From: Candidatus Bathyarchaeia archaeon
GTDB lineage: Archaea; Thermoproteota; Bathyarchaeia; Bathyarchaeales; Bathycorpusculaceae
Direction of reading: 5' to 3'
Length of the DNA stretch: 40,507 nt
NCBI GenBank assembly: GCA_049970895.1
Contig: JBMFMB010000014.1
Location: 1-40,507 of the forward strand
Of this stretch, positions 4,283 through 33,304 are shown piece after piece. Both the position numbers and the translations under genes were made by a program. Within the stretch, counting starts at the first letter, position 1. Every line of letters begins with the position of its first letter. Under the pieces are notes generated by a model. The model had not been told where the DNA came from. It worked only from the letters and a program-made list of their open reading frames with translations, and made no database searches.

Positions 4283-4360
4283 TGGTGCGGCCGCCGGGAT
4301 TTGAACCCGGGTCGTCAGCGTGGCAGGCTGATGTCCTAGTCCAGGCTAGACTACGGCCGC
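4283..4360 (-). tRNA. tRNA-Gly (GCC), intronless, CCA encoded
   Basis: GCGGCCG acceptor stem, D-loop AGCCTGGACTA, anticodon arm TCAGC-CTGCCAC-GCTGA, T-arm CCGGGTTCAAATCCCGG, 3' ACCA. Confidence 0.97.
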
Positions 4361-31064: not shown

Positions 31065-32696
31065 TTAATACCTCCCCTTACCCCTAACAATAAGCCTTAA
31101 GGCTAATAGGATTATGAAGGAGATTAATATTAAGAAACCGCAGCCCAAACCAATCTCCAAAGGTGTCGCTGCAACTTTCCCCTTAACCCAGTCCACAAGA
31201 ACCACCGGGGCGGTCTTAAGATGGGTGACAGCCAAAGTGGCACCGGTTTCGCTTATGCTTCTTGTGAAAACCATTATGGCGCCAGAAAACATCGAATACT
31301 TAGTCAACGGAAATATAATTGTTCTGAAAACGCAGAAGGGCTTGGCTCCTAAAGTTCTCGATGCTTCTTCAAGCTCTATGCTTATTCGCTCAACAGCCGC
31401 CGCCATAGACCTAACAAAATATGGATAAGTAATTGCCAAATGTGCAAAGACGAGAAGTAAAATATCTGGAATAAAAGCCAAAGTTTCTTTCCAGAAAAAG
31501 CGGAGGGAGACCCCCAAAGCCACCGACGGCACGATTATTGGAATGTCAACAAGAACGTTTATGGCTGATGAAGCTTTTCCAAGGCGTTTTCGAGCGACAA
31601 TTATCGCCATTGGCAGTCCTATAAGAACATTCAAAAAAGTGACGGCAGCCCCAAGCGAATAGGAGCGGATAAGGCTCTGCCAATACTCGCCCCAATGAGA
31701 GTCGCGGGACAAAGCTTTAGGCAATATGCCCGTTGTAATGGCTTCAAAAGCTGGAAGTGCCGCGAAAAGTGACGGAATTAAAACGACAGCCAAAAAAATT
31801 AGTAGTGTGATGCCGTCTCTGGCGAATGTTGCCGAAGAATAGCTCACTTTCCTCTCAAGTGTGGGCCACGCTCTTTTCACCGGTAGTTTAAATTTACCGC
31901 CTAGAATGCGAACCACCGCAAATATTAAGCATGAAACAACTATCAGAATTAGGCTAACGAAAACTGTTGCGCCGACATAAGTATCCTTTGTGTTTTGGAT
32001 AAATATTGGTCCGTTTTCAAAGGCTCCAGCAACCATCATTGTTGCTCCAGTTTCTGAAATAGACCTTGCAAAAGCCAAAACAAAAGCTGCAATTAATGAA
32101 GGCTTTATAATTCCAAAAGTGACTGTTCTAGCCGCCGTGAATGGCGGTGCGCCCAGAGTTCTTGACGCCTGCTCATACTCAATCTTATAATCTAACAGTG
32201 CGCCAACAATAACCCTTACCGCGACGGGATAAGAAAATGTGAAGTGAAGCAAAGCCACGAGAGGCAACCCAGGCGAAACGAGGGAATAGCCGAAAAGAGG
32301 CGAAATTTCTCCTGGTTTATACCAAAAAAGTAGAAGCGAATAGCCAAGCACGGCTGTCGGCACGATAAACGGGATGTCTGCAAGCGTGTCCAAAATGTTT
32401 ATCCATTTGGATTTGCTGCGGGCTATAAGCCAAGCCATCGGAATGCCAGCAGCCACATCCAAAATTGAAACCAGCACAGCCAAAACAAAGGAATTTTTCA
32501 CAGCCTCCAATGCGCGGGACAAAAGTTGGCTTTCTTCAAAAACTTCCCTCATAGAACCCCACTTGATAACTATGCCCAAAATTGGAGGAACCAAAATCAA
32601 AGCGAAAAAAAGTATAACGGCAGATAAATAGACCCCATATTTGACCGCTGGCTTTGAGGAAAGCCTATCAAGCTTCTCAACGAGTTTTTTGGGCAA
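31065..32696 (-). CDS. ABC transporter permease with two fused permease modules (FbpB/ThiP/ModB-like)
   Basis: Duplicated EQASRTLGA / EEASRTLGA EAA loops and RSISETGAT. Confidence 0.92.
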   Translation of the reverse strand: MPKKLVEKLDRLSSKPAVKYGVYLSAVILFFALILVPPILGIVIKWGSMREVFEESQLLSRALEAVKNSFVLAVLVSILDVAAGIPMAWLIARSKSKWINILDTLADIPFIVPTAVLGYSLLLFWYKPGEISPLFGYSLVSPGLPLVALLHFTFSYPVAVRVIVGALLDYKIEYEQASRTLGAPPFTAARTVTFGIIKPSLIAAFVLAFARSISETGATMMVAGAFENGPIFIQNTKDTYVGATVFVSLILIVVSCLIFAVVRILGGKFKLPVKRAWPTLERKVSYSSATFARDGITLLIFLAVVLIPSLFAALPAFEAITTGILPKALSRDSHWGEYWQSLIRSYSLGAAVTFLNVLIGLPMAIIVARKRLGKASSAINVLVDIPIIVPSVALGVSLRFFWKETLAFIPDILLLVFAHLAITYPYFVRSMAAAVERISIELEEASRTLGAKPFCVFRTIIFPLTKYSMFSGAIMVFTRSISETGATLAVTHLKTAPVVLVDWVKGKVAATPLEIGLGCGFLILISFIILLALRLIVRGKGRY

Positions 32697-32781
32697 ACCT
32701 ATCAGCCTAAATCCAACTCAGCAAACCAACGTGCTTCTTTTCTCATTCGCAAAATTTGCTGATAAGCTTTCCGTAGAAAAT

Positions 32782-32851
32782 GCGTCAGTTCGCCCGTCGA
32801 GTCATATCACAGCCGTAAGCCAGCTCTATTGACTCTCTAACTCATCATCCA
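32782..32851 (-). ncRNA. Box C/D guide sRNA, predicted targets 23S C1920 and 16S C1402 (E. coli numbering)
   Basis: Box C ATGATGA (32848-32842); guide GTTAGAGAGTCAA; D' TAGA (32828-32825); stem GCTG/CGGC; C' GTGATAT (32810-32804); guide GACTCGACGGGCGAA; box D CTGA (32788-32785). Confidence 0.85.
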
Positions 32852-32872
32852 AAATAGGGATATCAAACCATC

Positions 32873-32888
32873 AAATTTAAAGCTTCCC
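32873..32888 (-). promoter_or_regulatory. BRE/TATA-like promoter upstream of the C/D sRNA
   Basis: GGGAAGC-TTTAAATTT; TATA-like box begins 33 nt upstream of box C. Confidence 0.5.
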
Positions 32889-32923
32889 GCGCATTCAAAA
32901 TGGGGAAAAGGCAAGTTTTAAAA

Positions 32924-33304
32924 TTATTCGTATTTGCCTTTTCTTCTCTTTAGTAGGTTGACGTACTCTTCCACTGCTTTTTCAACGTCCCATTTGAAGC
33001 CGGACTCCCCGAAGGTTGCATTCCACCAGTTAATGAACCTTCTAAGGGAAACCTTCACAAAAAACGTAAAAGTGACGGCTGGGATGATGAAAGTTAAAAT
33101 GATGTTTACTGGGAAAGGAAAGGTCATAAGGAGATAGAGGCTTAAGAAAAATTCCCCTATCAAAAATATCGGTATTAAGATTCCCCAGAAGATTCCGCCA
33201 GCGCTTTCCAAGAAGTCTGTTCCGGGAACTTTCAGAATTAACCTATAAAACCATGGCAGATTTTTCTCTTCAAACCGTCTAGGTTTGTCATCCTTTTCTT
33301 CCAT
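32924..33304 (-). CDS. Hypothetical membrane protein (two TM helices)
   Basis: Two hydrophobic stretches with charged termini. Confidence 0.7.
   Translation of the reverse strand: MEEKDDKPRRFEEKNLPWFYRLILKVPGTDFLESAGGIFWGILIPIFLIGEFFLSLYLLMTFPFPVNIILTFIIPAVTFTFFVKVSLRRFINWWNATFGESGFKWDVEKAVEEYVNLLKRRKGKYE

Follow-up and report, generated by a model that had tools for sequence, protein, structure and literature searches.

The window analysed here, the whole stretch of 40,507 nucleotides from a Candidatus Bathyarchaeia archaeon (genome of 1.34 Mb, 79 contigs, 45% G+C), carries in an intergenic region a short unit that on the minus strand, from 32848 to 32785, reads ATGATGA-GTTAGAGAGTCAA-TAGA-GCTGGCTTACGGCT-GTGATAT-GACTCGACGGGCGAA-CTGA, as taken directly from the window letters. 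A sequence-only reading of this DNA had proposed a box C/D guide RNA at this place, and its motif string and coordinates are correct, the interval it gave (32782-32851) being 32785-32848 plus three nucleotides on either side. The unit lies between a 126-aa ORF (32924-33304, minus strand), for which we found no Pfam match, and an ABC permease ORF (31065-32696, minus strand), and is on the same strand as both. Elsewhere in the window a tRNA gene at 4286-4360 (minus strand; RF00005, 64.7 bits) is the only Rfam match at gathering score. More than half of the sampled words from the interval 32600-33100 occur in contigs of runs labelled hot springs metagenome, which include two further studies besides the possible source sample; no run recorded as RNA was found to contain the stretch.

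Table 1. Features of the box C/D unit and its upstream region, in window coordinates
Feature	Position	Strand	Remarks
TATA-like TTTAAAT	32875-32881	minus	27-33 nt upstream of box C
Box C AUGAUGA	32842-32848	minus	conserved GG before it; invariant in alignment A1 (95 sequences)
D' spacer/guide GUUAGAGAGUCAA, 13 nt	32829-32841	minus	
23S-pairing part of D' spacer, AGAGAGUCA	32830-32838	minus	partner 23S 1917-1925 (E. coli numbering)
Internal helix, 5' strand GAGUCA	32830-32835	minus	overlaps D' guide
N+5 nucleotide of D' guide, G	32833	minus	
Box D' UAGA, degenerate	32825-32828	minus	CUGA, CAGA or UGGA in relatives
D'-C' stem-loop GCUG-GCUUA-CGGC-U, 14 nt	32811-32824	minus	from RNA fold
Box C' GUGAUAU	32804-32810	minus	RUGAU conserved; second GA of consensus missing
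Internal helix, 3' strand UGACUC	32799-32804	minus	copy of H69 3' strand
D spacer GACUCGACGGGCGAA, 15 nt	32789-32803	minus	
16S-pairing part of D spacer, CGACGGGCG	32791-32799	minus	partner 16S 1400-1408
N+5 nucleotide of D guide, G	32793	minus	
Box D CUGA	32785-32788	minus	invariant in alignment A1 (95 sequences)

The internal D'/C' motif is degenerate, with a D' that lacks its C and a C' that lacks the second GA, and it can form tandem G.A pairs, the GA of D' and the UGA of C' being conserved and a GC/GC stem replacing the loop. In the RNA fold the stem-loop between D' and C' forms the C-stem of a full K-turn in place of a K-loop; in A1, a MAFFT alignment of 95 sequences, 95.8% of cells are paired at its positions G26-C39 and C27-G38, which never covary, and the D'/C' stem II pairs do covary (UA 43, UG 9, CG 5; AU 62, GU 7, UG 6, GC 1). 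The spacer that separates C from D' is 13 nt long and the one that separates C' from D is 15 nt, against a typical length of about 12 nt that is not strictly defining. The three extra nucleotides of the D spacer sit within the internal helix treated below, and Thermoplasmata members with the same D guide have the canonical 12-nt spacer.

Upstream, the flanks of 123 unique homologues show an A+T peak of 77-92% at -31 to -28, TATA-like words start in them mostly at -31 (14), -32 (4) and -33 (4), and the GG directly before box C is near-invariant; an A+T peak at such a fixed distance fits a promoter. On the other side, just 3' of box D, the stretch UUUUCUACGGAA at 32768-32779 (minus strand) is conserved in about 10 of the 28 aligned relatives' copies, and a CA-pyrimidine-UUCU trailer is seen at many type A loci. 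This conserved stretch could be a terminator, could belong to the RNA, or could form the leader of the ABC permease gene that lies downstream.

The genome encodes the proteins expected to act with such an RNA, with fibrillarin (PF01269, 330.6 bits) and Nop5 (PF01798, 260.3 bits) adjacent on contig C28 and L7Ae (PF01248, 107.1 bits) on contig C1, all three far above the Pfam cut-offs. At the sequence level the RNA has the features of archaeal C/D sRNAs, namely boxes C and D, internal D' and C' boxes, guides of at least 8-9 bp and the genes for L7Ae, Nop5 and fibrillarin, although at 13 and 15 nt its spacers are long. A search of the window against Rfam gave no C/D family at gathering score, and on the locus itself, taken to E = 10, it returned weak generic C/D matches only (sR3 16.3/41, sR2 15.0/42, GlsR6 14.8/75), scores below gathering that place the sRNA in no curated Rfam family.

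Conservation of the RNA and the question of chance

Boxes C and D at the observed spacing are, taken alone, within chance: where 1.31 such pairs are expected the window holds 2, and as many or more turn up in 36 of 100 shuffles. The full box arrangement, by comparison, appeared in 0 of 100 shuffles of the window. When the genome was scanned with strict boxes and a required 9-mer rRNA match, a scan too stringent to count the genome's sRNAs, 5 candidates were returned and the reversed genome gave 0. The sRNA described here is the only clean dual-guide candidate of the five, the other four being 68-84 nt long and without internal boxes.

What the boxes alone leave open is settled by conservation that is limited to the RNA. 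A 121-nt BLAST query recovered the element (E <= 0.002) from 25 of 40 related genomes, 11 of the 13 from the same genus among them, in alignments that begin and end at the RNA's own limits (query 27-97) as the flanks diverge. The 28 copies aligned from this search, which did not presuppose the D guide, keep that guide and its register to box D near-invariant. One could still hold that these are box-like words arisen by chance in intergenic DNA that has no RNA gene, and both the frequency of boxes C and D at this spacing and the lack of an Rfam family at gathering score would agree with that. However, a 64-nt unit retained with exact limits in many genomes between diverging flanks, a promoter-like composition conserved upstream of it, and its standing as the only clean dual-guide candidate genome-wide against a reversed-genome control of 0 leave to chance a negligible probability, and we regard conservation as having effectively refuted it. 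The proposal of a C/D guide RNA is therefore borne out by an arrangement beyond chance and by conserved homologues, and the search among relatives that the sequence-only reading had put forward as a check found the element and its guides conserved.

A wider scan of the collection for box C, the D guide and box D gave at least 120 loci. Among the matches listed, about 108 are C/D-like RNAs, mostly titled Bathyarchaeia or Bathyarchaeota, together with Thermoplasmata/Methanomassiliicoccales, Hecatellales and two Heimdallarchaeota, and 12 are chance matches without internal boxes, 7 of these 12 being bacterial by title among the 80 titles listed. When the class was sampled evenly, 58 of 301 genomes had the pattern and 0 the reversed control pattern, and within the family labelled f1 the pattern is present in 29 of 48 genomes; these pattern counts are lower bounds because the genomes are incomplete MAGs and the pattern is exact. 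All the relatives are MAGs, and several of the counts come from exact-pattern scans that presuppose the D guide.

Outside Bathyarchaeia, 8 of the 47 genomes of a Heimdallarchaeota order have a C/D RNA in which the C1402 guide and its register are the same, three of them with a D' guide to H69 and the other five sharing another D' spacer that ends in GUCAG. The guide recurs in this register in Thermoplasmata as well. We considered whether the two Heimdall copies might be mis-binned Bathyarchaeia contigs and rejected this, as their D' guide fits their own 23S version (UUAAGG) and the architecture differs. Hecatellales (family f17, of the L090/L093 type) combine the same D guide with the D' spacer AUUCAGCCUUAGC, which matches the study genome's 16S over 9 Watson-Crick pairs at about nt 869 and is an example of D' guide replacement in this sRNA family. 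When the D' guides of other lineages were scanned against the study genome's rRNAs, this was the one 9-bp Watson-Crick match (16S at about nt 869); the remaining guides reached 5-7 bp by Watson-Crick pairs and at most 10 bp with G.U, in rRNAs that are not their own.

Pairing of the two guides with 16S and 23S rRNA

The D guide CGACGGGCG forms 9 Watson-Crick pairs with CGCCCGUCG in the organism's own 16S (nt 1364-1372, equal to E. coli 1400-1408 when the own 16S is aligned to the E. coli K-12 rrnH operon), and its N+5 nucleotide falls on own nt 1366, E. coli C1402. The assignment of this guide to C1402, which the sequence-only reading had made against a consensus, is thereby borne out against the genome's own rRNA. 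Among shuffled D guides 169 of 2000 (8.5%) reach 9 bp in the rRNAs with N+5 inside the duplex, and a duplex of only this length is by itself not rare. A 10-bp match counting Watson-Crick and G.U pairs, in 23S about 22 nt after H69, was considered as another target and rejected, 3 of its 10 pairs being G.U and N+5 lying at the duplex end. Table 2 of PMC11542601 treats Cm1369 of P. abyssi, Cm1402 of E. coli, Cm1639 of yeast and Cm1703 of human as equivalent, and the same source describes the equivalent Cm in plants, so that this nucleotide is already known to be ribose-methylated in an archaeon; according to PMC4644070, predictions of methylation in h44 of hyperthermophiles are sparse. Guidance of C1402 is well supported by the pairing, register and conservation, and the sRNA very probably directs methylation at this position.

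The D' guide AGAGAGUCA is the complement of H69 UGACUCUCU, E. coli 23S 1917-1925, with which it forms 9 Watson-Crick pairs in the spliced 23S and 8 in the unspliced. Its N+5 nucleotide falls on C2058 of the own spliced 23S, which is E. coli C1920 by a numbering taken from an E. coli stretch as printed, compared locally and without gaps rather than in a full alignment. Shuffled D' guides reach 9 bp in 45 of 2000 cases (2.3%).

The distinction between spliced and unspliced 23S arises from the gene itself, which spans 3844 nt (L003, C11:40085-43928) against a 2987-position model. It reads ...GGGAGUAACUCUGACUCUC, then a 763-nt insert (23S nt 2063-2825) that ends right before UCAAGGUAGCC and encodes a 185-aa LAGLIDADG_1 homing-endonuclease ORF (E 1.3e-15); at the D' target, accordingly, the unspliced 23S has UGACUCUC and then the insert. 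Since 11 of the 13 relatives with a 23S found are without it and read UGACUCUCUCAAGG or UGACUCUCUUAAGG, the insert is an intron between E. coli 1924 and 1925, with a cut that is ambiguous by one nucleotide and a site at the 3' end of H69, inside the D' target. Those 11 intronless relatives all have UGACUCUCU in H69, and an insert at this position is also seen in relative G012 and in two Heimdallarchaeota MAGs, both those whose 23S was read. Full pairing requires the spliced 23S, since the intron site falls within the D' target, and the H69 sequence that the sequence-only reading had used turns out to be correct for the mature rRNA and absent from the gene as it stands. The 16S and 23S genes are on different contigs (C4 and C11), and the 1.5 kb that precede the 23S contain no 16S, so that the two genes appear not to be linked; the 911-nt contig C37 carries a further, incomplete 16S-like stretch.

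Across the family the H69 match is kept unevenly. At least 8 bp to H69 with N+5 on C1920 is found in 52 of 105 unique members, in combination with D' boxes UAGA, CAGA, UGGA, CUGA and GUGA. In type B (13 of 105 members) the D' box is one nucleotide closer, which places N+5 on U1921 with 7 bp only; type C relatives have only 5-6 nt that can pair with H69; and in 27 of the 105 members no match to H69 reaches 7 bp. Three genomes with variant sRNAs, one each of types B, C and GAGCUA, had their 23S read, and H69 is unchanged in them. Guide nucleotides beyond the internal helix are also kept, an A at guide position 8 in at least 90% of the 95 sequences and a GA in all type A members. Three Heimdall genomes carry, beside the same D guide, UAAGAGAGUCA, an 11-nt perfect complement of their own spliced H69 that pairs over 11 bp in the spliced and 8 bp in the unspliced rRNA.

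Which nucleotide the D' half would select is a further matter. According to PMC5389607, the only sequence-specific contacts of Nop5 in stem II are with nucleotides that are absent here from D'/C', and in yeast departures at these nucleotides shift or split the methylated position, which makes the exact nucleotide methylated from D' less certain. Helices H68, H69 and H71 are predicted methylation hotspots in hyperthermophiles (PMC4644070). The earlier assignment of the D' guide to C1920 therefore stands in its 9 bp and in its N+5 position, and is weakened by a guide that is itself held in an internal helix and by a ninth pair that needs splicing. Guidance of C1920 is plausible but uncertain, given relatives that keep the helix yet lose H69 complementarity. 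We would give methylation of C1920 by this sRNA in the study organism about an even chance, and methylation of some nucleotide within 1919-1921 a slightly better one.

The internal helix and competing readings

Within the D' guide the sequence GAGUCA, which includes the N+5 nucleotide, is complementary over 6 bp to UGACUC at the junction of C' and the D spacer, a stretch made of the final nucleotide of box C' and the first five of the D spacer. This helix is the core of both the MFE and centroid structures from RNAfold (-17.8 kcal/mol, z -1.82, 9 of 200 shuffles as good), and 94 of 105 unique members can form a helix of at least 5 bp between the two regions. With the register fixed, the share of paired cells is 82.0%, a value that 0 of 1000 partner shuffles reach, and 74.5% after such shuffling; in A1 the figure is 91.8% against 11.7-58.6% for slid-partner controls, with a covariation score of 0.100 against 0.069 +/- 0.006 and 0 of 500 shuffles reaching 0.100. 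All these shuffle statistics are inflated by sequence relatedness, most members sharing one helix version. The informative compensatory cases are few but clear. A termite-gut lineage has GAGCUA/UAGCUC, with two pairs changed on both sides, H69 unchanged and the spacer match to it lost; the lineage of G028 has UUAGUG/UAUUAA, in which the D' spacer is wholly different and the helix is kept; and another lineage has the compensatory version CGAGAGU/ACUCUCG.

A literature search on internal pairing of guides found nothing relevant. The helix would fit several roles on the sequence evidence: it may replace a weak C'/D' stem II and so give L7Ae a full K-turn, it may keep the D' guide shut up to the point at which RNP or substrate opens it, or it may be the only function remaining to the spacer where the guide has decayed. 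A covarying helix that copies the H69 target is a small and unexplained structural twist, and it might show how a guide is gated.

Taken together, these observations are best explained, with a probability we would put somewhat above even, by a C/D sRNA with its own promoter whose D guide acts on C1402 and whose D' guide can act on C1920 after release from the helix. An RNA of about 64-70 nt would be transcribed from this promoter, L7Ae would bind two K-turns, the terminal C/D one and the internal C'/D' one, and Nop5-fibrillarin would then be recruited. The D guide on 16S 1400-1408 would position C1402, nt 1366 of the own 16S, for 2'-O-methylation at a distance of five nucleotides from box D, and the D' guide, once freed from the 6-bp helix, could pair with spliced 23S 1917-1925 with C1920 at N+5, so that in the study lineage the D' half would be an H69 guide competing with an intramolecular helix. 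Put in terms of outcome, the most likely role of the sRNA is to direct ribose methylation at a base of the small-subunit rRNA that is modified universally, and possibly also at a base of the large subunit.

The evidence from the helix can also be taken to mean that only the D guide is functional, the D' spacer being a structural strand that extends the non-canonical stem of the C'/D' K-turn and its H69 match a relic or coincidence. A helix of 5 bp or more in nearly all members, with pairing and covariation above all shuffles, speaks for such a single-guide RNA, as do the three compensatory classes that keep the helix and lose complementarity to an unchanged H69, the short pairing left to type C relatives and the non-consensus C'/D' stem II. 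It does not sit well, however, with the conservation of guide nucleotides outside the helix (the position-8 A and the type A GA), with the half of the members that keep N+5 on C1920 across differing D' boxes, with Heimdall members whose perfect H69 complement comes without a comparable helix, or with the sRNA-guided Cm1920 reported in another archaeon (PMC5389701); moreover, one helix version dominates and independent compensatory events are few. We therefore think a single functional guide rather unlikely. More doubtful still is a role mainly as an rRNA folding chaperone that keeps the top of h44 and the 3' strand of H69 open while assembly proceeds, with methylation secondary or absent. Such roles have been proposed for dual-guide sRNAs (PMC6009581, PMC5389701), and short 9-bp duplexes with a sequestering helix would suit transient binding, but nothing observed requires it and the D guide keeps strictly a register to box D that is relevant to methylation only, so that we consider it very improbable. 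The location of 16S and 23S on different contigs likewise does not favour a single RNA bridging both during transcription.

A bolder extension of the dual-guide reading takes UGACUC as a built-in mimic of H69 that gates the D' guide. C1402 would then be methylated constitutively and H69 only by strand exchange on spliced 23S, in which the 3' strand of H69 would go to the guide and its 5' strand to the mimic, and the pairing of H69 with C1402 guidance would be ancient and possibly related to U43/snR70. We see this as a speculative and improbable elaboration. If it were true, the maturation of the two partners of bridge B2a would be coupled, and the combination of H69 and C1402 guides in Bathyarchaeia and Heimdallarchaeota would be an ancient arrangement. 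The finding in any case adds a well-supported guide RNA for 16S C1402, among the very few ribose methylations common to bacteria, archaea and eukaryotes, in Bathyarchaeia, a large uncultured lineage, with the D guide also present in Heimdallarchaeota and Thermoplasmata.

Comparison with known guide systems

In the literature searched we found no paper on a box sRNA in Bathyarchaeia, and the family thus appears to be undescribed in this class, bearing in mind that the target tables of published surveys (PMC4644070, PMC6009581) may already list guides to C1402 or C1920 from other archaea. For the C1402 equivalent in eukaryotes we take the guides to be snR70 (yeast Cm1639) and SNORD43/U43 (human Cm1703). 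Neither family is among the Rfam matches to E = 10 on the locus, where no sequence-level relation was detected. The guides for yeast Cm1639, human Cm1703 and Arabidopsis Cm1645 (AtU43) nonetheless share with the D guide the same C1402-equivalent target (PMC11542601). In bacteria the same two nucleotides are modified by RsmI (16S Cm1402) and TlyA (23S Cm1920), and type II TlyA also makes 16S Cm1409, one agent thereby serving both subunits at bridge B2a; unlike the sRNA, these are protein-only methyltransferases without a guide RNA (PMC5053481, PMC7317525).

The closest described functional analogue is sR20 of Nanoarchaeum equitans, which similarly has one guide on the 3' region of 16S and the other on H69 (PMC5389701). 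Its reported targets are 16S Gm1530 and 23S Cm1920; the authors describe the latter as confirmed by RiboMeth-seq and mass spectrometry, on data that the paper does not show, and note that the two target helices meet at the subunit interface (PMC5389701). Compared by description, it differs from the sRNA here in a 16S site, G1530, that is next to h45 and is not C1402 of h44. The idea of one RNA serving both subunits at their interface thus holds here as complementarity to both of the organism's own rRNAs, and is not new, the cross-subunit combination of H69 and 16S having in Neq sR20 an experimentally backed precedent.

With the canonical archaeal C/D sRNAs of Pyrococcus, Pyrobaculum and Sulfolobus (including sR2 and sR3) the RNA shares its boxes, two guides, the N+5 rule and the L7Ae, Nop5 and fibrillarin genes, and its guides match their targets over no fewer than the 8 bp set as threshold in PMC6009581, which also describes drift of the exact site within a conserved target region for archaeal C/D sRNAs. 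It departs from them in size and shape, canonical sRNAs being about 50 nt with a K-loop and this one having a 64-nt core, 13- and 15-nt spacers and a full K-turn with a stem-loop, and also in a C' without the second GA and a covarying helix between the D' guide and the D spacer's 5' part. The sRNA is thus a member of a well-known class, and the covarying target-mimic helix is its only mildly new element.
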